Positions 326 through 16,107 of a stretch of DNA of 64,000 nucleotides are shown one piece after another (position 1 is the first letter of the stretch; each line of letters starts with the position of its first letter). Origin of the DNA: Elusimicrobia bacterium GWA2_62_23 (GTDB lineage: Bacteria > Elusimicrobiota > Elusimicrobia > Elusimicrobiales > UBA9959); assembly GCA_001799635.1 (NCBI GenBank), contig MGTV01000048.1:16760-80759 (forward strand), read 5' to 3'. The position numbers and the translations under genes are program-made. The notes under the pieces were generated by a model. The model made no database searches. It was given only the letters and a program-made list of their open reading frames with translations, and was not told the origin of the DNA.

Positions 326-364
326 AAAAAGAAGGCGGGCCGGATATCCGGCCCGCCTTTCTTT
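326..364. terminator. Bidirectional intrinsic terminator
   Basis: Perfect palindrome AAGGCGGGCCGGATATCCGGCCCGCCTT (332-359) with A-tract before and T-tract after, between convergent genes. Confidence 0.85.
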
Positions 365-380
365 GCGCCGCCTTAACTGG

Positions 381-1115
381 TTAAGCGGCCTCTTCCTCTA
401 TTTCCGGCTTCTTCTTTCGGAAGTGGTCCACCACGAAGTAGATCACCAGCGCCGCGAGGATCACGTGCGTGGCGTAGAAGTACTTGGGAGCGGAATACTT
501 GTAGAGGTCGTCGAAGCGCCCGTAGAGCAGCGAGAAGCGGCCCATGACGGTGTTGCCGAAGGCGGCCCCGAAGTAGAGCATCAGGAAGTAGATGCCGATG
601 TTGGAGGCCTTCTTCACCACGCCCTTGTGTTCCACCGAGAAGAAGAAGTAGAACAGCACGCAGATGAAGCCGATGGCGACTATGGAGCCGTTGATGAGCG
701 ACCCGATGTTGGCCCTGGAGATCTCCGAGACCATGAAGGGGGCGATGGTGCCGCCGATCTGCTTGAGCAGGTCGGTGGAGATGGTGAGCGGTATCACCAG
801 GCCCGAGCCGTAACCCATGATGAAGGTGAAGCCGTAGCGCGAGATCCAGGAGATCCGCGGGAAGAACTGCGTTACCAGCGACAGGCCCAGCACGGTCGGG
901 ATGAGCACGGTCCAGTCCCCGGCCTGCAGCGGCTCCCACACCTTGGGTTTCCAGGTCTGGAAGAGCACGGTCTGGAACACCCAGCCCATGCCCGCGCCCA
1001 GGTAGAGGTGCTCGGTCACTTTAAAGAACGGGTTGTCCTTGTAAAGGAAGCTGAACAGGAAGATGGTGAGGCCCGCCGCCACCCATCCGCCGAAAATAAG
1101 CATCGTTTCAGACAT
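381..1115 (-). CDS. Uncharacterised polytopic membrane protein (about 6-7 TM), last gene of the GlmL-associated membrane module
   Basis: 244 aa, hydrophobic; motifs FSFLYKDNPFFK.TEHLYLG and FLMLYFGAAFGNTVMGR; RBS AGGAG upstream. Confidence 0.8.
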   Translation of the reverse strand: MSETMLIFGGWVAAGLTIFLFSFLYKDNPFFKVTEHLYLGAGMGWVFQTVLFQTWKPKVWEPLQAGDWTVLIPTVLGLSLVTQFFPRISWISRYGFTFIMGYGSGLVIPLTISTDLLKQIGGTIAPFMVSEISRANIGSLINGSIVAIGFICVLFYFFFSVEHKGVVKKASNIGIYFLMLYFGAAFGNTVMGRFSLLYGRFDDLYKYSAPKYFYATHVILAALVIYFVVDHFRKKKPEIEEEAA

Positions 1116-1128
1116 AGTTTCTCCTAAA

Positions 1129-1956
1129 TTACAGGTACTTGAGCCAGAGCATCATGATGTTGGCCGTCACGATGAGGATGATCACCATCAGGTGGGCGAG
1201 GCTCAGGGCGTCTATGCCAGAGGTGCCTTTTTCCTTGTGGTTGATGAGCGTCTCGTAGTCGGCCGCGCCCTTCATGCCGCCCACCAGGCCCTTGAGCTGG
1301 CCGGTCTGCAGGTATGGGGCGTAGCCCATCTGGCTCACCGCGGTGACGCCGCCGGCCATGGGGAACTTGAACTTGTCGCCGGTATAGGCGATCCAGTAGT
1401 CCAGCATGGCCGTGCCGGTGATGCAGATGCCGAGCTGCATGTCCTTGACGTTCTTTATGCCCTTGAACACTTCCATGTCCCTGATGGGCGAGCCGTCGCG
1501 GTCCTTGTCGTAGATCTGGTAGAGGTCCATGCCCATCTGGGTCATGACGGCCACGGGGTTGGGCTGGTAGGGCAGGATCACGTAATCCTTGCCGTACACC
1601 TTCTCCGGGGCGATGTCCTTGGGGATGCGCTCGCCTATCTCCTCGATGAGGCCGGTGGCGCCGGCGTTCAGCGTAAGGATGCCCACGCGCAGGTTCTTGC
1701 GGAAGGCGTGGCGCAGGATGGCCACCGCCTGCGGGTGCAGTTCAGGGCGGGTCGCCGGGTCGTAGTCCAGCGACATCAGGACGAACGAGCGGGGGGGCAG
1801 GCCCTCTATGCGCTCGTAGAGGCTCTTGACCTCGGAGCCCAGGTTCAGGTTAGGCAAGCCCAGCGGCTTGACTATCGGGAACACGAGCAGGATCGCGAGC
1901 GCCAGGAAGATCAGGCGCCGGTCTATCTTGAGGAGTTTCTCTAAAAAGTTCTTCAT
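1129..1956 (-). CDS. Uncharacterised membrane-anchored protein (N- and C-terminal TM flanking an alpha/beta domain)
   Basis: 275 aa; motifs SLDYDPATRPEL and GQLKGLVGGMKGAADYE; 3 nt from the upstream stop. Confidence 0.8.
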   Translation of the reverse strand: MKNFLEKLLKIDRRLIFLALAILLVFPIVKPLGLPNLNLGSEVKSLYERIEGLPPRSFVLMSLDYDPATRPELHPQAVAILRHAFRKNLRVGILTLNAGATGLIEEIGERIPKDIAPEKVYGKDYVILPYQPNPVAVMTQMGMDLYQIYDKDRDGSPIRDMEVFKGIKNVKDMQLGICITGTAMLDYWIAYTGDKFKFPMAGGVTAVSQMGYAPYLQTGQLKGLVGGMKGAADYETLINHKEKGTSGIDALSLAHLMVIILIVTANIMMLWLKYL

Positions 1957-1959
1957 GGT

Positions 1960-2628
1960 CTAGTCCTTCCCCATGTACTGGCGTTCGATGCCGAAGATGA
2001 TCTTGAGCGCGGTGACGATGCCGCCAACCGCGAGTCCCATCATGATGCCGCGGCGGCCGGCCACCACGGGCACGTCCATGAGCCACTGCACTATCTGGGT
2101 GACGCCCAGGTGGGTCCAGCCGAGCAGCTTGTCCCACATCAGTTGCCCGAGCGGCACCTTGCCGATGATCAGCACCAGGGCCGCCGCGAACAGCACGCCG
2201 GCCTGCGCCGACTTGATGCGGAAGGCGCGGTAGGCGGTGGAGACGATGTAGAAGGCCAGCACCGAGAACATGGTGCCGGACAGGGCGTTGAACATGAAGC
2301 GGTAGCCCCAACCCAGCCCGGTGAGGGAGGTGCCGTCCATCTGCTTGCCGTGGCTCATCAGCGCGGGAACCACCATGACGAGGAAGCCCACGAAGACGAA
2401 CAGGCTGTAGCCCCAGCCGTCCACCTTGCGGCGGATCTTGTTGTAGTGCGAGAAGAACAGGCTGAACAGGCCCAGCAGGAAGGCGAAGCCGGCCACTATG
2501 TTCTCCCACTTGTTCATGACCTCCAGGTAGTTCTCGGAGGTCTTGTTGGGGACGTAGTAGGAGGCCAGGGTCATCAGGCCTACAAGGAAGCAGATAGCGA
2601 GCGGTATGTATTTTTTTATCAGCGTCAT
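1960..2628 (-). CDS. Uncharacterised polytopic membrane protein (about 6 TM)
   Basis: 222 aa; motifs TMFSVLAFYIVSTAYRAFRIKS and AGRRGIMMG...LKIIFGIER; 1 nt from the upstream stop. Confidence 0.8.
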   Translation of the reverse strand: MTLIKKYIPLAICFLVGLMTLASYYVPNKTSENYLEVMNKWENIVAGFAFLLGLFSLFFSHYNKIRRKVDGWGYSLFVFVGFLVMVVPALMSHGKQMDGTSLTGLGWGYRFMFNALSGTMFSVLAFYIVSTAYRAFRIKSAQAGVLFAAALVLIIGKVPLGQLMWDKLLGWTHLGVTQIVQWLMDVPVVAGRRGIMMGLAVGGIVTALKIIFGIERQYMGKD

Positions 2629-2629
2629 A

Positions 2630-3883
2630 TCAATATGCCTTGAAGATGTGGCCCACTACCTTGAGCAGCGGCTGCCAGTTGAACCACGTGCCCGCGAGCA
2701 GCAGCAGGGACCCGGCGCCTACCGCGAACATCACGAAGGCTTTGCCGAAGTCCTGCACTTTCAGCGTGGAGAGCAGCATGGGCTCCTTGGACAGGTACGC
2801 GCCGGCGGCGTAGAGCTCCTCGCCGATGAGCGTGTAGTCGCAGGAGGTGAAGAAGAACGGCAGCTGCGATTCCTGCTCGGTGCCGGCGATCTGGATGGCA
2901 CCGGTGGTGGCGCCGACCTCGGCGAGCAGCAGGGACTCGGCCATGAAGTGGCCGATGAAGAAGCAGGCGGCCGGCTTCTCGCGGTGGATCATGCCGTCCA
3001 CGGAGGCGGCGTAGGAGAACTGGTCCTGGCTGACGAAGAAGTTGATGTCGTCGCGGTAGGAGTCGGGGCGCTCGGCCTCGGTGTAGGCCTGCTTCACGAT
3101 CTCCTTGGACACCGTCATCACGATGGGGTCGAAGTGCGGCACCTTGAGCTGGGTGTCGTACGAGGCCACCTTGCGGGCCACTTCGCTCAGGATGGAGGTG
3201 GAGGCTATGGTGGGGATGGCGCTCATGCCGCCGATGCCGGTAGAGTAGAAGATCGGGCGGCCCATTTCGGTGGCGCGGCCGATGGCTTCGTCTATGGCGT
3301 CGAGGCCAGCGATGCGGCGGATGAACAGGCCCTTGCGCTTGGCGTGGGAGACCGTCCAGAAGAAGACTATGATGGTCACCACCAGCAGCACCAGGTTGTT
3401 GAGGCGGGCCAGGTTGAACATGTTGGCCGCGGCAACGGCCTTAACCTCGGCGCTTTCGGCTGAAGTCTTGCCGTTCACGTACTTGAGCTTGAAGCCGTAT
3501 TCCTGCCCGGTCTTGAAGTCCTTGAAGAAGGAGGGCAGCTCTACCTGCATGGCGTGCAGGGTCGAGTCGTGTTTCCAGGCCCAGAAGGGCAGGTCGAAAT
3601 CGGCGGCGAACCTGGAGTCGGCCGGGAATTCGTCCGCCTTGACCCAGACGCCGTCGGCGCCGGCGGCGTAGACCTGGTAGAGGGCGCCGGGAACGTCGGC
3701 CGCGCCTGCGGGCCAGGTAAGCAGAACCGCCTCGCCCTTGTCATAGGGCATGTCCTTGGCCTCGAAACCGGCGAAGTCCGGTTTGGGCAGGTCATTTTTC
3801 TGGGAGGCGGGAGCGGCGGCCGAGACTGAAGAGACCGCCAGGAAAACAGCGATTACGGCAAGATTAAGTCGGGTTTTTAACAT
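2630..3883 (-). CDS. Signal peptide + FN3-like extracytoplasmic domain + TM + DUF6754-like domain
   Basis: ATG at 3883 (MLKTRLNL) preferred over TTG 3922, which coincides with a -35 box; FN3-like LTW...YQVY...YGFKL; IRRIAGLDAIDEAIGRATEMGRP and CDYTLIGEELYAAGAYL recalled as DUF6754 motifs. Confidence 0.7.
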   Translation of the reverse strand: MLKTRLNLAVIAVFLAVSSVSAAAPASQKNDLPKPDFAGFEAKDMPYDKGEAVLLTWPAGAADVPGALYQVYAAGADGVWVKADEFPADSRFAADFDLPFWAWKHDSTLHAMQVELPSFFKDFKTGQEYGFKLKYVNGKTSAESAEVKAVAAANMFNLARLNNLVLLVVTIIVFFWTVSHAKRKGLFIRRIAGLDAIDEAIGRATEMGRPIFYSTGIGGMSAIPTIASTSILSEVARKVASYDTQLKVPHFDPIVMTVSKEIVKQAYTEAERPDSYRDDINFFVSQDQFSYAASVDGMIHREKPAACFFIGHFMAESLLLAEVGATTGAIQIAGTEQESQLPFFFTSCDYTLIGEELYAAGAYLSKEPMLLSTLKVQDFGKAFVMFAVGAGSLLLLAGTWFNWQPLLKVVGHIFKAY

Positions 3884-3893
3884 AACTTGTAAT

Positions 3894-3922
3894 AATATAC
3901 ATTTATTGGCATTTTCAGGCAA
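3894..3922 (-). promoter_or_regulatory. Sigma70-type promoter for the four-gene membrane module
   Basis: Minus strand TTGCCT-17 nt-TATATT, 10 nt upstream of ATG 3883; AT-rich island in GC-rich DNA. Confidence 0.6.
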
Positions 3923-4001
3923 GGAGAAATAAACCCGACGGAAATGCCGGGGAAGAGAAGGGAGGCGTGAGGGAGGACGGCAGCGGCCGTTTTGGCGCCG
4001 G

Positions 4002-5717
4002 TCAGCCGGGCCTGGCCAGCAGCTGTTTTATGGCCGCCGCGTGTTTGCCCATACCGGCGCGCTCCAGGTTCTCGAAGACGGCCTTCTGGGCGGCGCCGCC
4101 GAGGTGCCTGGGCCAGAGGAGGTAAAGGGTATTGCCGGCGGCGCCGGGTTCCTCGTATCTGAGGATCTTCAGCGGCCTGTAGGGTTTCAACAGGGCGTCC
4201 AGCCGCGCGCCCGTAAAGCCCCATTGCGCGTACAGGTCCCTGTCGGCCAGCACGTCGCCGGTCATGTAGACGGGAACGGCGTGGTCGTAGTAGCTGGCAA
4301 GGATACGGCCGAGCTCCTCTACCGGGTCTTTTTTGTCAGCGTAGAAGTTCAGGATCGCCAGCTGTATGGAAATCCTTTCCCGGTTGGCGAAGTAAGGTAT
4401 ATAGACTTTAAGCGGGCCGCCCGAGATCAGGACAGGGCTGTCTGGGTGGGTAAAGTAGGCCACGGCGCCGCAGAACCCGATGGCCGGGCGGGCGTCCCTG
4501 CCCAGGTACGAGGGCAGGACGAGCCTGGCGAAATTATTGGCGGCGGTGAGCCCGACCAGCAGGAAAGCCGCCGCGACCGGGACGGGGCCAGCTATCGCGG
4601 AGGTCCGCCCCCGGAGCAGCACCGCCAGGAGGCCGGAAAAAAGCACGACGTTGGTGGACCAGTAAATGGTGTTCCCCGGCTGCCACACGGAGTAGAGCAC
4701 CAGGAAGAGGGCGAGCGGGAACCCGAAGGCCGCCGCGAGCGGCAGGCTTTCAGGCGCCAGGAAAGGCTTGCTCTTCCGGCGGGAGTATGCCAGGAAGGCG
4801 GCCAGCGCAGCCAGCAGGACCACGGCGGCGGCCGCCGCGGCCCGGTCGGGAGCAGTAAAGTGGAAAAAAGAGACCAGGAGGTTCCTGAGGGGCAGGACCA
4901 CGTGCCCCGCCACGTTCAGTTCGAACTGGCCCAGCGGGTTGCCTTCCGGCGAAATGCCGTTCACCAGCCCGGACCCCCACTGCCACCAGCGCGCCAGACC
5001 GCCTTTCACGAAGAAGCCGTGGATCAGCGCGTAGGGCAGGAAGAAGGCCAGGAAAAAGCCGGCCAGGATGGCGGCCTGCCGGGCGAGCTCCCGACGGTGA
5101 TACAATGCGGCGGCGGCGGCCGCGGCCCAGAGGATATTGTTGGCGATGTGGAACCCGGAGGCCAGCCCCGCGAAAGCGCAGAGCGCGCAAAAGGCGGCGA
5201 GGGAGAACCCGAGTAAATACCGGTAGAGCGCGGCGCAGAACAGGAGGGTGAACAGCGTGCCGCCCAGGTAAGGCTCAGCGCCTGTGGCACGGCTCCAGTA
5301 CACAGCGCTCACCCCGGCCAGCAGCGTCCAGAACAGCGCCTGCCGGCGGGATAGGGCCCGGGCGAGCAGGGAGAAGAATACGGCCAGCCCCAGCGCCCCG
5401 GCGCCGGCGTTGAACCACTGTATGGCCTCGTAGCTGAGGCCGCCGAAGCCAAGGAGGCGCAGCAGCACGTAAAAGGACCGCGTCACCGGGTACCAGAGGA
5501 AATGGTTCCACTCAAAGACAACGGCGGGCGGGTTCAGGCCGAGCGGCGACCGGATGATGCCGGAATACAGGACCGAGTCGTAAAAATACGAATGGTCGAA
5601 AGTGGCGGCGTAGAGAAGGAGGAAGCCGAGAAAGACGAAGAGCGGGTCAGAAAAAGCCTGGGGAACGGAACCTGAAAATATTTTCCTTACGCTATTTTCT
5701 GAAGGGCCGGCGGCCAT
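4002..5717 (-). CDS. GT-C-fold (ArnT/PMT-like) membrane glycosyltransferase
   Basis: 571 aa, 11 or more TM segments; first-loop acidic motif YFYDSVLY; soluble C-terminal domain. Confidence 0.6.
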   Translation of the reverse strand: MAAGPSENSVRKIFSGSVPQAFSDPLFVFLGFLLLYAATFDHSYFYDSVLYSGIIRSPLGLNPPAVVFEWNHFLWYPVTRSFYVLLRLLGFGGLSYEAIQWFNAGAGALGLAVFFSLLARALSRRQALFWTLLAGVSAVYWSRATGAEPYLGGTLFTLLFCAALYRYLLGFSLAAFCALCAFAGLASGFHIANNILWAAAAAAALYHRRELARQAAILAGFFLAFFLPYALIHGFFVKGGLARWWQWGSGLVNGISPEGNPLGQFELNVAGHVVLPLRNLLVSFFHFTAPDRAAAAAAVVLLAALAAFLAYSRRKSKPFLAPESLPLAAAFGFPLALFLVLYSVWQPGNTIYWSTNVVLFSGLLAVLLRGRTSAIAGPVPVAAAFLLVGLTAANNFARLVLPSYLGRDARPAIGFCGAVAYFTHPDSPVLISGGPLKVYIPYFANRERISIQLAILNFYADKKDPVEELGRILASYYDHAVPVYMTGDVLADRDLYAQWGFTGARLDALLKPYRPLKILRYEEPGAAGNTLYLLWPRHLGGAAQKAVFENLERAGMGKHAAAIKQLLARPG

Positions 5718-5726
5718 GTGCTTGTC

Positions 5727-7889
5727 CTATTTCCTGGCGATGTTCTTCATTATGATGTCACGCATTACGTTAAAAGGGGGAGGGATCCCGGCCGGGCGCC
5801 TGTCCGCCAGGGCGTAAACGGCCACGCGGTTGGAGGGGCGGCCGTTCTCCACCTCCTCGTAGGCGTGCACTTCCACCACGTGCCTGTCCCAGAACTCGTC
5901 GTAAACGCCGCTGGTCCTGGCGTCCCAGTAGAACATGTTGTAGGCCCGGCCCAGCCTGATGCCCTCGGCGGCGTTGAGCAGCAGGTGGGTTACGCCCTCG
6001 GCCTTGAGGCGGGAATAAAGTTCCTCGCCGCTAGCGGAGGCGGCCGCGTATTCCACTATGGGGGTCTTGTCGAAAACCGAGCTTACCACGAAGTCTTTTT
6101 TGAAATATGCGCCGCGGGCGTCGCCGATGATGAGCGTCTTGGCCCCGGCCGGCAGGTCGTTATTGATGAACTGGATGGCCTTGTAATGGCTGTAGGGATA
6201 GGTGGGCTGGGTGACGGACAGATAAGTTTCCTTATCTATGAGCCCGAACACCGGCCGCCAGCGGCCCTGGGAATAGAGCATGAGCGCGGCCCAGTACAGG
6301 CAGAGCGCGCAGGAGAATAGGACCAGCACGGAAAGCGTTTTACGCAGGGCCTGGTGCTGCCGGGAGTCCAGCGCAGCGGCTATCAGCAGGGCCGCCGCCG
6401 GGTAGGCGGGCATGAGGAAGCGGACCATCGTCGAGGCGAAGGACCACAGCAGCCAGCCGCAGAGGAAATAGAGCCAGAGGGGGACCGTGCCGGCCGGTTG
6501 CAGCAGGAACAGCAGCGGCAGCAGGGCAAGGAACAGGGGGGTGAAGTAATTGGAGTTGAGCAGCGCGCCCATGGTGATGTTCCAGGGATGCAGCAGCCAC
6601 GCCTTCAGCTCCAGGGCCCCCATCTGGCGGGTCTCTACCATGAAGGCGTGCAGTTTGTCCGGGTCCGCCCCGGACAGCCCGAAGACGGAAGTCAGGAACG
6701 GGAAGAAAGGGTTGCCGCGGTACAGCCAGTTCTTCGCCAGCCAGGGCAGCACCGGCAGGGCGGCCACGCCGGCGAAGACCAGGGCCGCCTTCAGGGCGGC
6801 GCCGCGGTCGGAGCGCGAGCGCCAGAGGAGCACCAGGCCGGTACCGACGGCGGGGAACAGGCCGGTGGTCTTCACGGCCATGCCGCAGCCGGAGAAGAAG
6901 GCCGCGAGCAGCAGGAACCGGTAGCTGCCGGGCTCATGGCGCAGGGCCGCGGCCAGCGCGGAAATGGAGAACAGCGTAAGCAGCCACTCGGTGCCGGCCG
7001 ACCAGGAGGCCATCAGGGCGTGGGTGACCGTGTAGAAGATGAGCCCGGCCCAGAGCCCGGCGCGCAGGGAGAAATGCCTGCGGCCCACGCCGATCACGGC
7101 CACGAGGCTCAGCACGCCGGCCGCGTAGTTGATCAGTTTGGGGACCATCTCGTCCTTGAGCAGCAGGCCGGCGGAGTAGAGCATGCCGTGCAGCAGGAAG
7201 AGGTTGGAGTAGAGGTTGTACGGCATGTCGGCCAGACGGCCTTTGATGGCGTAGAAATTTGGCACGGCCAGGTGATAGACCAGGGAATCGTAGAAGATCT
7301 CGGGGCTGAGGCTGCCTGCCAGGTTGAGCAGCAGGGCCGCGGCCAGCAGGGCCAGGGCCAGCAGGTCCGTGAGCCCCGGCTTGAAGGCGGGCTCCGCTTC
7401 CGCTTCGGGTTCCGGGAAATACCGTCGGGAGAAGACGCCTACGGCGAAAGCGGCGGCGACCAGCAGCCGCACCGGGCCTTTGGAGAGCAGGCCCGCCGCG
7501 GCCAGGCCCAGCACCAGGTGGCCGATCACGCCCAGGCCGAGGGCGGCGGACAGCGCCGCGTCCTCGCAGGGCGACAGGCGGCCCGGCTTAAAGACGGACC
7601 GCAGCAGGAAAGAGCCGAAGGCGGCGCAGGCTATAACGAAGAACAGGGCGCTGAGCAAAACCGCCAGGTGGCCCGGAACGGCCTTGAAAAAGCCGGCGGT
7701 GAAATACTGGCCTGGGGAGAGCAGGACGAAAAGGGAATTCAGGTCGGGGGGAAAGCGGTCGAGATAGGTCTTGAAGACCCAGCCGCCCCAAAGCAGGAAG
7801 GCGCCCCAGGCCAGCCAGCCGGGGAAGCGCGGCGTTTCCGGCGGGACAGCCGGCGGGTGCGGTACGTGTTTTTTATGTTTTTTCGCCAT
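5727..7889 (-). CDS. GT-C-fold (family 39-like) membrane glycosyltransferase
   Basis: 720 aa; PEIFYDSLVYHLAVP, KNWLYRGNPFFPF and RFLMPAYP motifs typical of this family; soluble C-terminal domain. Confidence 0.7.
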   Translation of the reverse strand: MAKKHKKHVPHPPAVPPETPRFPGWLAWGAFLLWGGWVFKTYLDRFPPDLNSLFVLLSPGQYFTAGFFKAVPGHLAVLLSALFFVIACAAFGSFLLRSVFKPGRLSPCEDAALSAALGLGVIGHLVLGLAAAGLLSKGPVRLLVAAAFAVGVFSRRYFPEPEAEAEPAFKPGLTDLLALALLAAALLLNLAGSLSPEIFYDSLVYHLAVPNFYAIKGRLADMPYNLYSNLFLLHGMLYSAGLLLKDEMVPKLINYAAGVLSLVAVIGVGRRHFSLRAGLWAGLIFYTVTHALMASWSAGTEWLLTLFSISALAAALRHEPGSYRFLLLAAFFSGCGMAVKTTGLFPAVGTGLVLLWRSRSDRGAALKAALVFAGVAALPVLPWLAKNWLYRGNPFFPFLTSVFGLSGADPDKLHAFMVETRQMGALELKAWLLHPWNITMGALLNSNYFTPLFLALLPLLFLLQPAGTVPLWLYFLCGWLLWSFASTMVRFLMPAYPAAALLIAAALDSRQHQALRKTLSVLVLFSCALCLYWAALMLYSQGRWRPVFGLIDKETYLSVTQPTYPYSHYKAIQFINNDLPAGAKTLIIGDARGAYFKKDFVVSSVFDKTPIVEYAAASASGEELYSRLKAEGVTHLLLNAAEGIRLGRAYNMFYWDARTSGVYDEFWDRHVVEVHAYEEVENGRPSNRVAVYALADRRPAGIPPPFNVMRDIIMKNIARK

Positions 7890-7890
7890 T

Positions 7891-7939
7891 AAACAAAAGC
7901 GGCCGGTGGGCGGAATGCCGCACGCCGGCCGCTTTCTTT
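7891..7939 (-). terminator. Intrinsic terminator after the 374-aa gene
   Basis: Minus strand AAAGCGGCCGGCGTGCGG-CATT-CCGCCCACCGGCCGCTTTTGTTT: GC stem plus U tract. Confidence 0.65.
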
Positions 7940-7946
7940 CCCGGGA

Positions 7947-9071
7947 CTATTTTTCCAGCACTTCGATGTTGGCCCGGGGAACCACTATGACCTCGCCGCC
8001 GGCCAGTGTCACTTCCAGCACGCGCGCGTGGGACTCGCTGCCTATCACAGTGAGTTCCGGCGGCAGGCTCTTCACCGTGCCGATCACTCCGAAGTGGGGC
8101 TCGCGGATGATACGGATGGGGTCGCCGGGCTCTATCCAGCCGCGGCCCTGGTCCTTCTTGCACTCGGTCACGTTCTTGGGGAAGCCGGGGACTATGATCT
8201 CGGGGCGCATCACGCCGGCGCGGATCTGGGTGGCGCCGGAAACGGAGGCCCGCTCGCCGTTGCGCGAAGCCATGAGCTTGAAGGTGTACTCGGCCATGGG
8301 GATCATGCCGAAGCCCTCGGTGACTATGAGAGAAAGACCGATCTGCTCGGTGCCGGTCACGGCCACGCCGATGTCGTAGCCGAGCAGCTGGCGCAGGTCG
8401 CGGTCGTGGATGCCGCCCACCACGATGGCCTTCACGCCCATCTCCACGGCGCGCTTGATGGTGGAGAGGCCGGCGTGCTTGCCGCCTATCACGATCTTGC
8501 CGCGGCAGGCCTCGGTAATGGCCTCAGGCATCAGTTCCTCGTCGGGGCTCTGCGCCGCCATATGGATCTCGCCGTTGGTCTCGCCGCCTATGCCGAAGAT
8601 GCCCTGGATGAAGGTGCCTTCGGACTCTATGGTCACGCCGAAATTGGGGACCACTTCCACCACCTTGCCTTTCACGTAGGCCTGCAGCGGCAGCACCTTC
8701 GGGGGCTCGCGCAGCATGATCTGCCCGGTCACGTGGGAGATAGAGTCCACGGTGCCGTCTATGGGGGATTCTATGGAGGTCTTGAACCACTTAATGAAGG
8801 GCTTGTTCTCGGCGATGATCTCGCCTTTCTTCACAGGGTCGCCCTCTTTCTTGAGCAGCAGGTCCTTGATCTCGCCGGCTTCCACCGACATGCGGTTCGC
8901 CACGTTGATGGGGAACACCTTGCCGGGCAGCTCGGTCTGGGCCACCACGTCGGTGGCGTCCACCTGCTTGCCGTCCTCCACCAGCACCTTGCCGGGGATG
9001 GGCAGCAGGCGCTTCTTGCGGAACATCGTGCAGGGCATTACCTTGAGACCGGGCGTATAAGCGTGAGCCAT
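7947..9071 (-). CDS. Uncharacterised soluble protein (MAHAYTPGL) with barrel-sandwich-hybrid segments, a central alpha/beta domain and a C-terminal KOW/SH3-like domain
   Basis: 374 aa; KKEGDPVKKGEIIA...IESPIDGTVDSI resembles RnfC/NqrA N-terminal hybrid motifs; C-terminal IEPGDPIRIIREPHFGVIGTV is KOW-like; RBS AGGAG. Confidence 0.75.
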   Translation of the reverse strand: MAHAYTPGLKVMPCTMFRKKRLLPIPGKVLVEDGKQVDATDVVAQTELPGKVFPINVANRMSVEAGEIKDLLLKKEGDPVKKGEIIAENKPFIKWFKTSIESPIDGTVDSISHVTGQIMLREPPKVLPLQAYVKGKVVEVVPNFGVTIESEGTFIQGIFGIGGETNGEIHMAAQSPDEELMPEAITEACRGKIVIGGKHAGLSTIKRAVEMGVKAIVVGGIHDRDLRQLLGYDIGVAVTGTEQIGLSLIVTEGFGMIPMAEYTFKLMASRNGERASVSGATQIRAGVMRPEIIVPGFPKNVTECKKDQGRGWIEPGDPIRIIREPHFGVIGTVKSLPPELTVIGSESHARVLEVTLAGGEVIVVPRANIEVLEK

Positions 9072-9104
9072 AAATTATCTCCTAATTGAAATTATCTTCC
9101 GGGC

Positions 9105-10898
9105 CTAGACGGGGTACATCCCCATGGCCTTGTACCACTTGTTCAGGTCGTCGCGGCGCTTGCCGGCGTCCTTAGCCAGGTTGAAGGGCCGGCCGCGGCC
9201 GTCGAGCACCAGGCCCACCACGCCGCCCTCTATCTCGGCCTCCACCTTGTTGCCGGGGCCCGCGCCCATGTCGAAACCCTTCAGGGGTTTGGCCGTGAGC
9301 CTGGCCTTGGGAGCGTCGAAAGGCACGTGCACGATGTCGCCGAAGCGCAGCTGGCCGGCCTGCTTCTTGCCGTCGGGAGCGGTGACTTCCCACTCCATGA
9401 TCAGCTGGCCTTCCTTGGCGAGGCCCTTGGGCGCGAGGCAGGTGCCCAGGCGCACCAGGCAGTCGTGGTAGAACACGTCGAGCGCGGCCTTCTCGCTGAT
9501 CTGCGCCAGCACGCCGAGGTGCGGCATCATGAAGATGGAGTCCACCGCCATGCGGGTGATGCCCTCGGGCTGGTAGGCGTCTATCATCTGCATCATGGAC
9601 TGGGTGCGGCGGGGGGAATGGGCCAGGATGCCGCCGGAACCTATCACGTAGTCGAGCTTCATCACGTTGATGAGGCTCTGGCCGGAGGAGGTCTGGTCGA
9701 AAGCGTCCGAGATGGAGCGCTCCTGCTGCACGCCCTTCAGGCCCACGGCCAGCGCCTTGTGCTGTTCGAAGGCCAGGCGCAGCGCCTCGCGCGATACCGC
9801 GTGCTCTATCTGCAGGTCCTCCACCGTCTGCGGGATGGTGGTGGGGCGGATCATCTTGTTCTTGAGGCGGTTGCGCAGGTCCTGCTCCTCGATGTCGAAG
9901 GGCAGCCAGCGCAGGATGTTGGCGAGGCCCGCCTCGGCCATCACGTTGGAGATGGAGTAACTCATGCCGAGGTTGGCGCTGACGGTGCGGTTAAAGACTT
10001 CGGAGAACACGCTGAACACGTCGGTAGTGGCGCCGCCGATGTCCACGGCCAGCACGTTGAAGTTATTGGCCTTGGCGAACTTCTCGGTCATGGTGCCGAC
10101 GGCCGCGGGAGTGGGCATGATGGGCGCGCCCACCATCTTCATCAGGCGGGGGTAACCCGGGGCCTGCTGCATCACGTGCTCCAAAAAGATGTCGTGGATC
10201 TTGTGGCGCGCGGGCATCAGGTTCTCGCGCTCGAGGCTCGGGCGCAGGTTCTCGGTGATGATGAGCGCGGTGCGGTCGTCCAGGATGGCCTTGATCTGGG
10301 CGTGGGCCTTGTTATTGCCGGCGTAGATGACCGGCAGTTTGTAGGAGGCGCCCAGGCGCGGCTTGGGGTCCGCGGCCTTGAGGAACTGCGCGAGCTCCAC
10401 CACGTGGGTCACGGTGCCGCCGTCGGTGCCGCCGGAAAGGAGCATCATGTCGGGGCGCAGCTGGCGGATGCGCTCTATCTTCTCGTGGTCCGCGCGGCCG
10501 TCGTTGGAGGCCAGAACGTCCATCACTATGGCGCCGGCGCCGAGCGCGCAGCGCTGGGCCGATTCGCCGGTCATGGCCTTCACGGCCCCGGCCACCATCA
10601 TCTGCAGGCCGCCGCCGGCCGAGGAAGTGGAAACGTAGATGTCGGCGCCGACATTCCCGTTGTTGGGGGTGATGATCTTTTCGCCGTCGAGGATCTTGCG
10701 GCCGGACAGCTCTTCCACCTCGGTGATGGCGTTCAGCACGCCCTTGGTGACGTCCTCAAAAGGCGCCTCCACGGTGGTGGGGGCCTCGCCGCGGAAGGTC
10801 TGGCGGTAGGTATCGCCTTTCTTCTCTATGAGGATGGCCTTAGTGGTGGTGCTGCCGCAGTCGGTAGCTATGATGATCTCAAGGTCTTTTTTTGACAT
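9105..10898 (-). CDS. GlmL/MutL (glutamate mutase L)-like ASKHA-fold ATPase
   Basis: ATG 10898 with AGGAAG RBS; ATDCGSTTTKA (phosphate 1), SSAGGGLQM, LLSGGTDGG, MPTP, AVDIGGATTDVFS (phosphate 2), IGSGGILAH; 597 aa. Confidence 0.8.
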   Translation of the reverse strand: MSKKDLEIIIATDCGSTTTKAILIEKKGDTYRQTFRGEAPTTVEAPFEDVTKGVLNAITEVEELSGRKILDGEKIITPNNGNVGADIYVSTSSAGGGLQMMVAGAVKAMTGESAQRCALGAGAIVMDVLASNDGRADHEKIERIRQLRPDMMLLSGGTDGGTVTHVVELAQFLKAADPKPRLGASYKLPVIYAGNNKAHAQIKAILDDRTALIITENLRPSLERENLMPARHKIHDIFLEHVMQQAPGYPRLMKMVGAPIMPTPAAVGTMTEKFAKANNFNVLAVDIGGATTDVFSVFSEVFNRTVSANLGMSYSISNVMAEAGLANILRWLPFDIEEQDLRNRLKNKMIRPTTIPQTVEDLQIEHAVSREALRLAFEQHKALAVGLKGVQQERSISDAFDQTSSGQSLINVMKLDYVIGSGGILAHSPRRTQSMMQMIDAYQPEGITRMAVDSIFMMPHLGVLAQISEKAALDVFYHDCLVRLGTCLAPKGLAKEGQLIMEWEVTAPDGKKQAGQLRFGDIVHVPFDAPKARLTAKPLKGFDMGAGPGNKVEAEIEGGVVGLVLDGRGRPFNLAKDAGKRRDDLNKWYKAMGMYPV

Positions 10899-11211
10899 CT
10901 GGGTCTTCCTTTTTAGCGGGTTCGGCGCTGAGCCGGTCGACAAAATACGCCATGGCCTTGCCGTTCTCCAGCAGGGCCCGATACTTCTGTACTTCTTCTT
11001 TCTTAAAGAGCAGGGTCAGGGCCGGCTCGATGAAGATCGCGCCCTGAGCGCCCAGGTTATGCAGCGGCCTGGTGCTCTCCACGGCAAAGGCCGCGATATC
11101 CCCCAGCCCGCGCCGCCGCACCTTGTCGGCCAGCACGTCCAGGAGCCGCTTTTCCTCGTCAGTGGGGTCAGGGGGCTCCGGGATCTTGAAAGCGTTGTCC
11201 CAGATTCCCAT
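10879..11211 (-). CDS. Small helical hypothetical protein, first gene of the glmL-like unit
   Basis: 110 aa from ATG 11211; overlaps the glmL-like start by 20 nt; TAAAAT -10 box 8 nt upstream. Confidence 0.7.
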   Translation of the reverse strand: MGIWDNAFKIPEPPDPTDEEKRLLDVLADKVRRRGLGDIAAFAVESTRPLHNLGAQGAIFIEPALTLLFKKEEVQKYRALLENGKAMAYFVDRLSAEPAKKEDPDVKKRP

Positions 11212-11279
11212 GCGCATTTATTTTACTATAAAAGGGGGAGGGACCGCACAAGGGGCGGGGGCGGGCACTGGAACGCGCC

Positions 11280-11308
11280 TTGAAACCGCGAAGTTCGTGG
11301 TGTATACT
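11280..11308 (+). promoter_or_regulatory. Sigma70-type promoter
   Basis: TTGAAA-17 nt-TATACT, upstream of GGAGG RBS and ATG 11348. Confidence 0.7.
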
Positions 11309-11347
11309 CTTTAGTAAGGCCGGGAACGCCCGGCACGGAGGTTTTTT

Positions 11348-13051
11348 ATGGACGTAAAGACCAAATTTACCTGGAAGGCGGCCCTGGTGCCGGCGGCCGC
11401 GGTGACCGCGGCCTTCGCGGTGGGCATAGGCTATTTCGCCGGCAGCTCGCCCCAGGACACCGAAACCCCGGAAAGGCAGGCGCAAGTGAGCTTCAACAGC
11501 GGCCCCAGCTACGCGCCAGGCAGCGACCCCATGGCCAGGCCGGCCCAGCCCCGGGCCTCTTCCATAGAGATGTTCCGGCAGGTGAACAGGAATTACTCTT
11601 CCGACAGCGCCGGGCAAGCCACCGCCTTCAAACCCGCGGTAAAGCCTAAGACCAACGCCGAAATGCAGGAATTTCTGCGGCAGGTCCGTCACGACATAAA
11701 TTACGAGGCCCCCGCCGGGGAAGCGGGGGCGGCGCAGGGAGGCGGGACGCCGCAGCCCGGCGGCCGGCGCATCTACAACCCCGCCGGGCTGGGCAGCAAA
11801 CCCGGCCCCTCCGGGGTCCGCGCGGCCTCGCTGCCCAGGCTTAAGCCCGCCGGCAGCCCGACAGGAGACCTGGGCGGCAAGCGCTCCGGGTTCGGTTCCA
11901 ATTTCCAGGACTACGGCACGGCCCCGGCGCTGCACGGCCCCGCGGCGGCCAGGCAGCAGCGGGCCGACGACCTGGCGGCCTCCGGCGGCGGTTCGCACCT
12001 GGAGGCCGGGGAGTACGGCTCAGCCAGGAGCGGCCAGGACGGCTCGGGCGGTACCGGCATGAACTCCGGCGGCAGCGGCGGTTCACAGGGAGGCGGCGGC
12101 GCGTCGTCCTCCATGAACCCGGCCGGGGGGATGAAACAGGCCCAGACCGAGGCCGGCCCTCCGCCGGCGCCGGTAGCCTACCTATGGCCCAGGACGCTGG
12201 ATTTCGGGGACATGCGCACTTACGAAACTGCTACCAGGATGGCGATCCTGATGAACATCGGGGAACTGCCCCTTTCCGTGGGGGCGATAGAGAACATAGA
12301 TGACGACGCCCCTTTCGCCATTGAGAAGGACAACTGCAGCAACTCGACCTTGGCTCCCGGGAAAAGTTGCACGTTCCTGGCCAGGTTCTCACCTCAGGGT
12401 GCCAGGGAATATATCACGGCCTTCTACGTCCCGACCAACGACAACGGCCGGTCCTACTACCAGACCTACATGGAGGTCAAAGGCAAAACGACCTCCTCCC
12501 AATGGACTTCATGGTGGAACCGGCACTGGGGCAGTTCCGGCCAGGGGACCGTGAACAAGGCCGAGTTCGGCATGGTGCCGGAGGGACGCAGCCTCAGTGA
12601 AACCGTGCGCGTGACCAACACCGGCGGCAATAACTGGCACGCCGTGAAGCTCGACCTCTCCAAACTGCCGTTGTCGTTCAAGATCACCGGGGACGGCTGC
12701 ACCGGTTCGTCAGTGGCCGCCGGCCAGTCCTGCCCGGTCGCCGTGACTTTCACCCCGACGGAGATGGTCAACCGCAGGTTCTCTGACTCGCATTATGGAC
12801 AGTATCTTGCGGTGAACGCCAACACCGGAGCCAAAGTGCACGACGCCCGGCCCAAGTTCCCGCCCTTGCTGCTGGACGCCCCCGTGGAGGCGGCGCCCAA
12901 GGGAGCGTTCAAGGTGCTGGCGAGCTATGACGAAGAGTATCACACGGCGCACCAGGAGGTGCTGGAAGTGAAGTTGTCCGCCAGGAGCTGCGCCCCGTTC
13001 CCGGCAAAGGGCCTGACGCGCATCCAGGATTACTACTACTACTTCAAATAG
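11348..13051 (+). CDS. Membrane-anchored surface protein: Gly/Ser/Ala-rich linker + two choice-of-anchor-D/ASH-type Ig domains
   Basis: N-terminal TM; LDFG...LMNIGELPL...DNCSNSTLAPGKSCTF..RFSP and EFG...VTNTG...DGCTGSSVAAGQSCPVAVTFTP. Confidence 0.7.
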   Translation: MDVKTKFTWKAALVPAAAVTAAFAVGIGYFAGSSPQDTETPERQAQVSFNSGPSYAPGSDPMARPAQPRASSIEMFRQVNRNYSSDSAGQATAFKPAVKPKTNAEMQEFLRQVRHDINYEAPAGEAGAAQGGGTPQPGGRRIYNPAGLGSKPGPSGVRAASLPRLKPAGSPTGDLGGKRSGFGSNFQDYGTAPALHGPAAARQQRADDLAASGGGSHLEAGEYGSARSGQDGSGGTGMNSGGSGGSQGGGGASSSMNPAGGMKQAQTEAGPPPAPVAYLWPRTLDFGDMRTYETATRMAILMNIGELPLSVGAIENIDDDAPFAIEKDNCSNSTLAPGKSCTFLARFSPQGAREYITAFYVPTNDNGRSYYQTYMEVKGKTTSSQWTSWWNRHWGSSGQGTVNKAEFGMVPEGRSLSETVRVTNTGGNNWHAVKLDLSKLPLSFKITGDGCTGSSVAAGQSCPVAVTFTPTEMVNRRFSDSHYGQYLAVNANTGAKVHDARPKFPPLLLDAPVEAAPKGAFKVLASYDEEYHTAHQEVLEVKLSARSCAPFPAKGLTRIQDYYYYFK

Positions 13052-14461: not shown

Positions 14462-14905
14462 ATGCGGGCACTGATACAGCGCGTCAAGCGGGGCGGGGTG
14501 AAAACCGCCGGGGCGGACCACGCCATAGGGCGCGGCTTGGTGGTGCTGCTGGGCGTGGGCGTGGGCGACGCCGAAAGCGACGCGGACTTCCTGGCCGAAA
14601 AGACCGCCAACCTGCGCGTCTTTTCCAATGCCGACGGCAAGTTCGACCACTCCCTGCTGGACGTGAAAGGCGAGGCGCTGGTGGTCTCCCAGTTCACGCT
14701 CTACGGCGACGCCTCCAAGGGCCGCCGCCCGGACTTCACCGCGGCCGCCAAACCGCAGGAGGCGAACCGCCTCTACGAATATTTCGTAAAAGTTTTGGGG
14801 GCGAAAGGAATACCGGTAAAGACGGGGATCTTCGCGGCCGACATGGAAGTAGAGATCATTAACGACGGACCCGTCACCATCTGGCTGGACAGCCGCAAAA
14901 AATGA
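14462..14905 (+). CDS. dtd: D-aminoacyl-tRNA deacylase
   Basis: MRALIQRV, SQFTL, KGRRPDF, NDGPVT motifs. Confidence 0.97.
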   Translation: MRALIQRVKRGGVKTAGADHAIGRGLVVLLGVGVGDAESDADFLAEKTANLRVFSNADGKFDHSLLDVKGEALVVSQFTLYGDASKGRRPDFTAAAKPQEANRLYEYFVKVLGAKGIPVKTGIFAADMEVEIINDGPVTIWLDSRKK

Positions 14906-16107
14906 ATCCAGGACCGAAACGCCTTTTGATCTTCGCGGCTTTAACCGCCTTCCTGACAGCGGGAAGTTGCGCTTCAAAAAAACCGCGCGGGGCCGGACCC
15001 GCCGCCGTCTTTCCTGCTCCTTTGGACCGCGTGGTAGAGGATATCTCCGCCATCAAGGAGCGGATCCCGGGCCGCAAGATAGCCGTCTACGAATTCACCG
15101 ATATTTCCGGAAGGACCAGGCCGGAAGGCAGACTCGTGGCAGAACGGCTTACCACCGAATTGGCGCGCACCGGTGAATTCCAGGTCATAGAACGCAGCCG
15201 TCTGGAGGCCGGTCTCAGGGAACTCAAGTTATCAGCCGCGGGAGTTATCGACGAAGCGACCGCCCTTCAGGCCGGAAGGCTCCTGGGGGCGCAGGCCGCG
15301 GTCACAGGCACGCTGATACGCATAAACGGGAAATTCGAACTTAATGTCAGGACGATAGACGTGCAGACAGGCGGCGTGATTTCCGGTTCTATTGTCCATC
15401 TCGAGGAGGAGGCCCTTAACGTCAAAACGGATCCGCAAGATGACTCCTTCGGCCTCCCTCACCACCAGAAACCCGCGCCCGTCTCAAAAAAAATCCCGGC
15501 AGGATGGGAAGAATGGCCGGGCTGGGAAGGCCGCTACGGGAACTTCCGGTTGGAGAGTGGCAAACTGTATTATGACATGACGTCCAGGCAGCACGACCAC
15601 ATCGACGCGGAGATCCCGGAGGGCTACTATCCCGGCCTGCTTCTGGCCAGACGTGTCAAGGGCGACAAATGGGCCGTGGAGGCGAAAGTCAGATATAACA
15701 TGCCGGTAGCGGCCGGTCGCTGGTTTTCCATGTGCATCTGGATCGGTCCCGGCGGCGCCCGCCCTTCCATAGGCAGTAAGGCCAAAGCCCTGGCGGTCTG
15801 CGCGCTCCGCCGAGCCGACTCAGGATACGGCACCGACGATTTCAGTTTTTTTCACTCTCCGGGAGGACACCCCGCGGTCAGCCTGTCGAAGGACCAGGCT
15901 TACCTCCGTTTTGAAAGGAACGGGACCGACTTTAAAGCTTTGGCCAGCCTGGACGGTACTGAATACAGGGAAGTCCTCTCGATTACCGGCGCAAAAATAT
16001 CTCCAGGGGAGGAGCAAAAGATAGTTCTGGGCGGGCAGTCGTATTCCGCCGCCGGTTCTTACGCCGAATACGAATACATTAAACTGAACGGAAGGCCGTT
16101 ATTCTGA
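14902..16107 (+). CDS. Lipoprotein: CsgG/FlgO-like domain + C-terminal beta-sandwich (ConA-like) domain
   Basis: Lipobox-like TAGSC; IAVYEF...FQVIERSRLE...GRLLGAQAAVTGTL...RTIDVQTG; ATGA overlap with dtd. Confidence 0.7.
   Translation: MNPGPKRLLIFAALTAFLTAGSCASKKPRGAGPAAVFPAPLDRVVEDISAIKERIPGRKIAVYEFTDISGRTRPEGRLVAERLTTELARTGEFQVIERSRLEAGLRELKLSAAGVIDEATALQAGRLLGAQAAVTGTLIRINGKFELNVRTIDVQTGGVISGSIVHLEEEALNVKTDPQDDSFGLPHHQKPAPVSKKIPAGWEEWPGWEGRYGNFRLESGKLYYDMTSRQHDHIDAEIPEGYYPGLLLARRVKGDKWAVEAKVRYNMPVAAGRWFSMCIWIGPGGARPSIGSKAKALAVCALRRADSGYGTDDFSFFHSPGGHPAVSLSKDQAYLRFERNGTDFKALASLDGTEYREVLSITGAKISPGEEQKIVLGGQSYSAAGSYAEYEYIKLNGRPLF

Follow-up and report, generated by a model that had tools for sequence, protein, structure and literature searches.

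A conserved seven-gene bacterial locus combining a MutL-family ATPase module with a DUF6754 membrane module: a candidate ATP-using membrane machine

We describe here a gene cluster carried on a window of 64,000 nucleotides (nt), by which we mean the whole stretch of DNA that was analysed, from Elusimicrobia bacterium GWA2_62_23 (GenBank assembly GCA_001799635.1, contig MGTV01000048.1, positions 16,760 to 80,759 of the forward strand). The source genome is an Elusimicrobia metagenome-assembled genome (MAG) of 2.98 Mb in 51 contigs, 91.8% complete. Between window positions 381 and 11217 lie nine consecutive genes, g1 to g9, all on the minus strand. Seven of them recur together in many bacterial phyla: a soluble trio (g1-g3), which includes an ATPase of the MutL family with an ASKHA core, and a membrane quartet (g6-g9), the first member of which carries the domain DUF6754. 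A preliminary description, made from the sequence, had listed seven co-oriented genes in this interval. These lie where it placed them, including the trio of a 110-amino-acid (aa) protein, a 597-aa ASKHA ATPase and a 374-aa protein beginning MAHAYTPGL, all on the minus strand, and the tight spacing that it gave for the quartet is confirmed (1 nt between g6 and g7, 3 nt between g7 and g8, 13 nt between g8 and g9); the true count for the interval is nine, however, as g4 and g5 had been missed. The genes and the one associated feature are as follows, TM denoting transmembrane.

g1, 10879..11217, minus strand: 112 aa with the first ATG as start, 110 aa with the ATG at 11211
g2, 9105..10898, minus strand: 597 aa; MutL-family (PF13941) ASKHA ATPase
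g3, 7947..9071, minus strand: 374 aa; begins MAHAYTPGL; soluble, three domains
g4, 5727..7889, minus strand: 720 aa; multi-pass membrane protein, GT-C/PMT_2-like
g5, 4002..5717, minus strand: 571 aa; multi-pass membrane protein, no family
g6, 2630..3922, minus strand: 430 aa from a TTG start, 417 aa from the ATG at 3883; DUF6754
g7, 1960..2628, minus strand: 222 aa; polytopic, about 6 TM segments by hydropathy
g8, 1129..1956, minus strand: 275 aa; terminal TM helices on both sides of a conserved domain of about 215 aa
g9, 381..1115, minus strand: 244 aa; polytopic, about 6-7 TM segments
Intrinsic-terminator-like hairpin, 332..359, minus strand: found by consensus scan; 12-bp stem with 10 G-C pairs and a T-rich tail

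The g1 and g2 reading frames overlap by 20 nt. Simple hydropathy analysis gives several TM-like segments in g6-g9 and none in g1-g3. The hairpin, which the consensus scan places 22 nt past the g9 stop codon, likely marks the end of a transcription unit.

Conservation of the seven genes as a unit

A scan of species-representative genomes with g3 returned at least 565 loci, the best 80 of which were kept and searched with phmmer and then with hidden Markov models (HMMs) built from the first matches. All 80 contain g3, with g2 present in 72, g6 in 66, g1 in 63, g7 in 61, g8 in 57, g9 in 54, g4 in 6 and g5 in none; many of these absences are contig ends. When attention is confined to the 53 loci with adequate flank (at least 2.6 kb upstream and at least 4.2 kb downstream of g3), all seven genes are found in 44, distributed over at least ten differently labelled lineages, and in 42 of these 44, taking the best match for each gene, they lie on one strand in the order g1-g2-g3-g6-g7-g8-g9. 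A locus of Desulfuromonadaceae (L068) becomes the 43rd co-linear example when the first of its two g6 copies is taken; there, two full DUF6754 genes (11134-12294 and 14489-15630) flank a single g7-g8-g9. At a Bdellovibrionales locus (L059) the set is split into g2-g3 and a convergent g6-g7-g8-g9-g1. The labels of complete loci comprise Elusimicrobia, Nitrospira/Nitrospirota, Binatia, Latescibacterota, Dormiibacterota, Bdellovibrionales, Planctomycetota, Eisenbacteria and Desulfuromonadaceae; a further complete locus, labelled Enterobacteriaceae, is probably mislabelled. An apparent g6-g7 fusion at one locus (L037) was rejected, the g7 HMM having absorbed over-extended open reading frames (ORFs), and the single ORF there is more likely to reflect a frameshift.

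Co-occurrence across whole genomes gives the same picture. Among 151 genomes of Elusimicrobiota, one and the same group of 8 (all 7 of the window's family together with the window genome itself) contains DUF6754, g3 and MutL, and none of the three was found in any of the other 143. DUF6754 and g3 share the same 21 of 151 genomes in Nitrospirota, where they lie side by side, and in Planctomycetota (101 genomes) the 26 with g3 all fall within the 28 with DUF6754. Over the 403 genomes of these three phyla, 55 have both DUF6754 and g3, 2 have DUF6754 alone, none has g3 alone and 346 have neither. Such a patchy, matching pattern is what would be expected of one system whose genes are acquired and lost together. 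The clustering and the co-occurrence of trio and quartet that the preliminary description had proposed are both borne out, the first by the 44 complete loci, nearly all of the same gene order, and the second by the restriction of g3 to genomes with DUF6754 (55 of 55). We conclude that trio and quartet very probably belong to one functional system. The earlier suggestion that the gene set recurs in diverse anaerobic bacteria and archaea holds in so far as many bacterial phyla are involved; it fails as to anaerobes, since aerobic Nitrospira are included, and as to archaea, no archaeal locus having been seen among those recovered. A set of 14 control genomes, among which 4 are archaea by name, likewise contained no match to DUF6754.

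The two genes that separate trio from quartet in the window stand outside this conserved set. The g4 product scores just above the PMT_2 cut-off (26.4 bits) and below that of LIC_10190_fam (40.3 bits, cut-off 100), and its homologues occur in 6 of the 80 loci, every one of these 6 belonging to a close Elusimicrobia relative; g5 has no match in Pfam or NCBIfam and no counterpart in any of the 80, and the two proteins show no similarity to each other. Because g4 is confined to these relatives and g3 abuts g6 in Nitrospira, the pair is best read as a lineage-specific local insertion. The distance between g3 and DUF6754 in the window's family is 4.5-12 kb where both lie on one contig (6 of 8 genomes), as against direct abutment in Nitrospirota. 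In two WOR-3 loci an ORF of 931-982 aa stands just before g3, abutting or overlapping its start (L054:7204-9999 and L066:7050-9998), the former encoding a TMEM260-like protein O-mannosyltransferase with TPR repeats. No pairwise similarity was found among g4, g5 and this TMEM260-like protein, and the adjacency of GT-C proteins to g3 in two lineages may be coincidence or may have arisen twice. In 30 Nitrospira loci (e.g. L017:14748-16157), and in no other lineage, g9 is followed by an ORF of about 469 aa.

Divergent from g1 on the plus strand is a gene (11348-13051) whose 567-aa product combines two HYDIN/ASH-type Ig-like domains with a Gly/Ser-rich stretch of low complexity; farther along come a DUF192 gene and genes for an AsnC-type regulator, a CsgG-like lipoprotein and RNase R. 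Membership in a known anti-phage defence system was considered and rejected, no family in the PADLOC-DB defence models being matched by any of the nine proteins. The 381-11217 region is recovered mainly in groundwater metagenomes and also in some from soil. A sediment metatranscriptome (X20) yielded short contigs that match parts of g1, g2, g3, g6, g7 and g9 at 90-99% identity; their many differences indicate that they derive from relatives, and as the library may include DNA they are no proof of transcription, nor can assembled contigs reveal where transcripts end. They give almost no cover over g4 and g5, to which no evidential weight attaches.

The ATPase and its soluble partners

The g2 protein matches the Pfam MutL family (PF13941) with 428 bits, far above the cut-off of 27, over profile positions 1-449 of 450. 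Narrower models do not claim it: it scores 235.6 bits with the GlmL equivalog NF040745 (cut-off 475), 215.1 bits with NF040744, the model for the GlmL-related ornithine degradation protein Or-4 (cut-off 600), and 164.7 bits with the TIGR01319 subfamily (cut-off 204.05). The matches to GlmL-type models stop at residue 476 of 597, and the C-terminal extension of about 120 aa beyond them includes invariant positions of its own. Matches to Hydantoinase_A (E 8.8e-5) and Hydant_A_N (E 0.005) are weak, and a sequence search of the PDB with g2 returned nothing. Conservation is high, with a mean column identity of 68% over 24 homologues from many phyla and 58-72% identity to the window protein across phyla, outside its own family. 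Three motifs are invariant in these 24 sequences, D13-C-G-S-T-T-T-K20, D286-I-G-G-A-T-T-D293 and S421-G-G423, which we take to be the phosphate-1, phosphate-2 and adenosine motifs of ASKHA proteins. The ATPase motifs are thus intact, and with them, as judged from the alignment, the nucleotide site.

No match to glmE (PF06368) was found in the whole 91.8%-complete source genome. The B12-binding domain PF02310 has 22 matches there, none of them on the contig of the window; they lie on contigs C10, C8, C29 and others, many of them within open frames 470-570 aa long, and 8 form a cluster on C10 (74-97 kb); they may represent B12-dependent radical SAM enzymes. Because the genome lacks a PF06368 match and the scores fall under the family cut-offs, g2 is by these sequence measures neither a canonical GlmL nor a glutamate-mutase helper, and the name 'glutamate mutase L' under which its subfamily appears in public records is misleading. 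The preliminary description had set this ATPase apart from the mutases, with sub-cut-off scores for GlmL, Or-4 and TIGR01319 and the missing glmE now speaking in its favor; the contrary outcome that it had named, a place in the canonical GlmL clade with glmE and glmS elsewhere in the genome, is not what these scores and searches returned.

For the small g1 protein, close homologues use the start at the ATG at 11211 (110 aa). The protein has a conserved core around E47, P51, Q58 and P65 in the alignment and no match in Pfam, NCBIfam or PADLOC. Its larger soluble partner g3 gave Pfam matches below threshold only, to RnfC_N (21.9 bits, cut-off 25.6) and NQRA_N (14.4 bits), both barrel-sandwich-hybrid families, and no hit in a sequence search of the PDB. 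An AlphaFold (AF2) model of high confidence (pLDDT 91.6) resolves it into three domains.

Barrel-sandwich hybrid domain, about residues 16-150: AF2 model; fold matches to NqrA (Z 7.9) and RnfC (Z 7.7)
Swivelling beta/beta/alpha domain, residues 152-296: AF2 model; fold match to the Enzyme I His-domain (Z 9.4)
KOW/SH3-like domain, residues 310-374: AF2 model; fold match to the NusG/Spt5 KOW domain (Z about 8)

The strongest of these matches superposes the swivelling domain on the His-domain of PTS Enzyme I with a root-mean-square deviation of 2.5 A over 105 residues, and RraA (Z 8.6) and rifampin phosphotransferase (Z 8.5) follow. NqrA and RnfC match the N-terminal domain alone, over about 64 residues each at Z 7.6-7.9, and values below 8 are in the range of common arrangements. 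As modelled, these resemblances assign folds rather than functions, several of the Z values lying in that common range. The swivel fold is shared with PTS Enzyme I, other PEP-utilising enzymes and rifampin phosphotransferase, whereas the phospho-accepting histidine of those proteins is not kept in g3: its 14 invariant columns over 67 sequences include R21, E252, R284, R289, N368, E370 and several glycines and prolines, with no invariant histidine nor other obvious catalytic nucleophile. A role as phosphohistidine carrier, which the Enzyme I-like fold might suggest, was rejected because no histidine is invariant in these 67 sequences.

The g3 family is large, with 2,486 clusters at 50% identity reaching E values up to 1e-3, of which 503 reach 1e-30, and within it g2 and g3 are found fused in many organisms: PF13941 lies on 78 of 79 longer g3 homologues. 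The fusions fall into two classes, one of about 990-1005 aa in which all domains are kept, and a second, paralogous one of 856-1011 aa that lacks both the C-terminal domain of g2 and the KOW domain of g3. The joint absence of these two domains from the second class hints that they may serve to hold the g2 and g3 proteins together where these are split. Class-two fusions at three loci (L111-L113, from genomes G004 and G005) have a duplicated barrel-sandwich segment, and one copy is followed by a TPR-CHAT protein.

The membrane quartet as a repeatable module

DUF6754 (PF20539) is matched by g6 with 359.5 bits against a cut-off of 27. The protein runs from an N-terminal signal/anchor helix through an FN3 domain (about residues 45-168) and a TM helix into the DUF6754 core, which is rich in invariant acidic and polar residues, with E329, E335, D362, E368 and E369 lying within hydrophobic stretches of the alignment. 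Its predicted model has a pLDDT of 71.2, with residues 298-347 below 50 and the DUF6754 part at low confidence; the FN3 head is matched by fold (Z about 10) and by profile (2uve, E 4e-4). Against the PDB, profiles of g6-g9 retrieved only this FN3 domain and a chance TIM match (E 0.92), leaving g7-g9 without a solved relative. There is no Pfam relative of g7, no consistent Pfam match among 21 members of the g8 family and a sub-threshold family match only for g9, and a search of a protein atlas with g6 and g8 returned their own families alone. Taking the conserved set as a whole, five of its seven proteins fall in no Pfam family, and sequence searches detect a solved relative for the FN3 head of g6 only. 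No paralogy is detectable between g7 and g9 (profile probability 1%), nor any similarity of g1 or of g8 to g6. The alignments of g6-g9 contain no conserved cysteine clusters, C361 of g6 being the only invariant cysteine, and no Pfam match to a B12-binding, radical-SAM or Fe-S domain was found in the quartet.

Because of the charge distribution, the middle domain of g8 and the FN3 domain of g6 are predicted to face the periplasm. The 459 longer DUF6754 homologues (E up to 1e-3) differ in the N-terminal, extracytoplasmic part; among the best 120 of the 459, 19 carry a PQQ-like beta-propeller and 6 carry fn3, with lengths up to 1,475 aa and heads of up to about 1000 aa. Such large and variable heads suggest a periplasmic macromolecular target at least as much as transport of a small solute.

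Copy numbers of the two modules differ. The source genome has a single DUF6754 gene, and five other genomes (G001-G005) have 3, 3, 1, 3 and 7 DUF6754 matches alongside 1, 0, 0, 2 and 3 MutL matches. Complete g6-g9 quartets were recovered for 1, 3, 2 and 7 of the DUF6754 matches in the four genomes with 3, 3, 3 and 7; two loci (L101 of G001, L109 of G004) are lone g6 genes and another (L102) is cut by a contig end. None of the seven quartets of G005 adjoins an ATPase. In WOR-3, Stahlbacteria, Poribacteria and one unclassified bacterium it is g3 that stands without neighbours of the set, the other genes being elsewhere in the genome. As a module the quartet is independent and repeatable, and it can be located far away from the ATPase.

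The genes beside these modules are diverse. The extra quartets of G005 adjoin genes for a sodium:dicarboxylate symporter, which overlaps the start of g6, and for M28 and M29 peptidases; GT1, S1 protein, DUF2270, CCG, signal peptidase II (LspA), Wza-like and Wzi genes are further neighbours of extra quartets. Genes for an Opp-type peptide ABC transporter occur inside the cluster at two loci of different lineage label, between g3 and g6 in one (L005:13480-19708) and between g2 and g3 in the other (L080:5645-9934). Overall, these neighbour-gene clues are mixed and weak, the Opp, symporter and peptidase genes falling on the peptide side and the GT-C, Wza-like, Wzi and LspA genes on that of the envelope.

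A proposed mechanism and its alternatives

We propose that the ASKHA ATPase module powers or controls the four-subunit inner-membrane complex, a reading to which we assign a probability of about one half. The seven conserved genes would constitute one machine of two modules. The first, cytoplasmic, would be made up of the g2 ATPase, the three-domain adaptor g3 and the small g1; the second, in the inner membrane, of g6 with its variable periplasmic head and DUF6754 core, the polytopic g7 and g9, and the doubly anchored g8. ATP binding and hydrolysis by g2 would be relayed by way of the mobile-type domains of g3 to the membrane module at its cytoplasmic face, the output being either translocation of a substrate or a mechanical signal to the periplasmic domains of the kind attributed to FtsEX. 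One ATPase module might in this way serve several paralogous membrane modules. The docking of the two modules, ATP as energy source, the direction of coupling, the topology and the substrate are what we infer in this proposal. By way of analogy, FtsEX, MacB and the ECF transporters likewise combine a cytoplasmic ATPase with membrane subunits that have periplasmic domains, and in ECF transporters one energising module also serves several membrane modules. The ATPase here is of the ASKHA fold, however, and not a P-loop ABC protein, and none of the seven conserved proteins matches an ABC, FtsX or ECF family in Pfam or NCBIfam.

Several observations weigh against this reading. We know of no ASKHA ATPase that energises a transporter, and the nearest relatives of g2 are presumed chaperone-like reactivases or kinases. 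The modules are unlinked in WOR-3, Stahlbacteria, Poribacteria and G005, where g3 can lie apart even from g2. Fold searches with the g6 model matched its FN3 head only, the DUF6754 core of that low-confidence model finding no fold match. The positive genomes are related within each phylum, which means that the co-occurrence counts are not independent events, and the two Planctomycetota genomes with DUF6754 but no g3 match are MAGs at least 80% complete in which the DUF6754 matches lie on small contigs. Clustering of flanking genes revealed no family outside the seven genes conserved across phyla. Of the 79 longer g3 homologues a single one, P0271, runs on into g6; it looks like a read-through from g3 into a truncated g6 with an intact signal/anchor helix, topologically feasible, and is weak evidence. 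An uncontrolled complex prediction for residues 172-430 of g6 with g7 and g1, with g3 as partner, scored 0.14 against a mark of 0.32 and counts neither for nor against binding.

An alternative that we consider unlikely is that g1-g3 act as a reactivase or chaperone, using ATP to assemble, repair or exchange the cofactor in a labile enzyme formed by the quartet. GlmL, EutA and DdrAB are ATP-using chaperone-like reactivases or helpers, and g2 falls in the Pfam family of the presumed helper of glutamate mutase. The large subunit of diol dehydratase reactivase combines an ASKHA core with a swivelling beta/beta/alpha domain, as g2 and g3 do jointly, and its small subunit is of a size resembling g1; the unequal copy numbers, too, would be consistent with one helper tending several paralogous enzymes. 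In general architecture the likeness to DdrAB and EutA would extend to an ASKHA ATPase, a swivelling domain and a small partner protein, but the swivelling domain here resides on a separate or C-terminally fused protein together with barrel-sandwich and KOW domains, which sets it apart from those reactivases as they are generally described, and the constant neighbours are membrane proteins instead of a B12 enzyme. The quartet itself lacks any Pfam match to B12-binding, radical-SAM or Fe-S domains and has C361 of g6 as its sole invariant cysteine; nor is there a glmE match in the genome or a B12-binding gene on the contig of the window, and g2 remains under the GlmL-type cut-offs. A mean identity of 68% would also be unusually high for an accessory factor.

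Somewhat less probable again is uptake followed by trapping: the quartet would act as a channel or secondary transporter, and g2 and g3 as a soluble ATP-dependent kinase- or hydantoinase-like enzyme that converts the import, possibly a compound of amino-acid or peptide origin, so that the two modules would be linked by metabolism and not by mechanics. ASKHA families are for the most part kinases, and this explanation could draw on the weak Hydantoinase_A and Hydant_A_N matches of g2, on the Opp genes inside two clusters (L005 and L080) and on the symporter and the M28 and M29 peptidase genes beside extra quartets of G005. The remaining neighbours of extra quartets are unrelated, however, and no flanking family is conserved across phyla; g3 lacks an invariant histidine or obvious catalytic nucleophile; and FN3 or propeller heads reaching about 1000 aa are atypical of small-solute carriers.

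We regard it as improbable that the complex does no transport work at all, the quartet being a receptor-like or envelope-anchoring complex that would bind a partner through its variable periplasmic head, and the ASKHA protein a cytoplasmic scaffold or switch comparable to actin, FtsA or PilM. The combination of a conserved membrane core and a variable head outside the cytoplasm is indeed receptor-like, the ASKHA members FtsA, MreB and PilM are membrane-associated scaffolds, and the level of conservation of g2 is like that of cytoskeletal or chaperone ATPases. On the other hand, no kinase, cyclase or DNA-binding output domain is found among the seven proteins in Pfam or NCBIfam, and four conserved membrane subunits with invariant intramembrane acidic residues exceed what an anchor would need.

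That g2 is an ordinary GlmL, serving a glutamate or ornithine mutase encoded elsewhere and only coincidentally adjacent to membrane genes, would agree with the strong PF13941 match and with public records that call its homologues 'glutamate mutase L' or 'TIGR01319 family', but is so improbable as to be dismissed, given the three cut-offs not reached, a 92%-complete genome without a PF06368 match, DUF6754 in 55 of 55 g3-positive genomes and MutL in the same 8 of 151 Elusimicrobiota. With GlmL/MutL and Or-4, g2 shares PF13941 and an ASKHA core aligned over residues 10-476; it differs in scoring half or less of the equivalog cut-offs, in its extra C-terminal domain of about 120 aa, and in having g3 and the DUF6754 quartet as constant partners.

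Beyond these explanations, the inventory of parts recalls that of Rnf and Na+-NQR: a soluble subunit whose modelled N-terminal domain resembles that of NqrA and RnfC, a membrane subunit of about 400 aa, another that carries a periplasmic domain, and two further ones of about 200-240 aa, each with about 6 TM segments. The present system differs in lacking flavin, Fe-S and NADH modules as well as conserved cysteine clusters, its partner being an ATPase and not a redox module. A relationship was rejected at sequence level, where hhalign comparisons with RnfE, RnfA and RnfG from a related genome gave 0.1% for g7-RnfE, 0.2% for g9-RnfA and 0.1% for g8-RnfG; PF02508 has no match in the source genome.

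Searches confined to open-access full texts yielded no description of the system, of DUF6754 or of PF13941; the part of PMC5167688 concerned with canonical glutamate mutase and DNA-repair MutL of Dictyoglomus contains nothing on the present system. Within the scope of these searches the seven-gene system matches no described one, and it is probably a new kind of ATP-using membrane machine. Tentatively, and with appreciable doubt, we would go further and suggest that it may be the first membrane machine with an ASKHA-fold motor, in which a g1-g2-g3 unit plugs into several DUF6754 modules whose heads select periplasmic or outer-membrane targets.

The system is present in roughly 5-30% of the sampled genomes of three phyla, and its carriers include ecologically important groups such as the nitrite-oxidising Nitrospira, the Planctomycetota and many candidate phyla. 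With the parts list and partner relationships defined, both the reading of an ATPase-driven membrane complex and that of a reactivase are now testable. Were the reactivase reading true, it would reveal a hitherto unrecognised membrane enzyme that requires ATP-dependent maintenance. If instead the ATPase drives the membrane complex, this would constitute a new energy-coupling principle and assign a role to a large group of 'dark' bacterial genes, and an ASKHA motor, if confirmed, would represent a new primary energy-coupling class beside the ABC, P-type, rotary and AAA+ classes.

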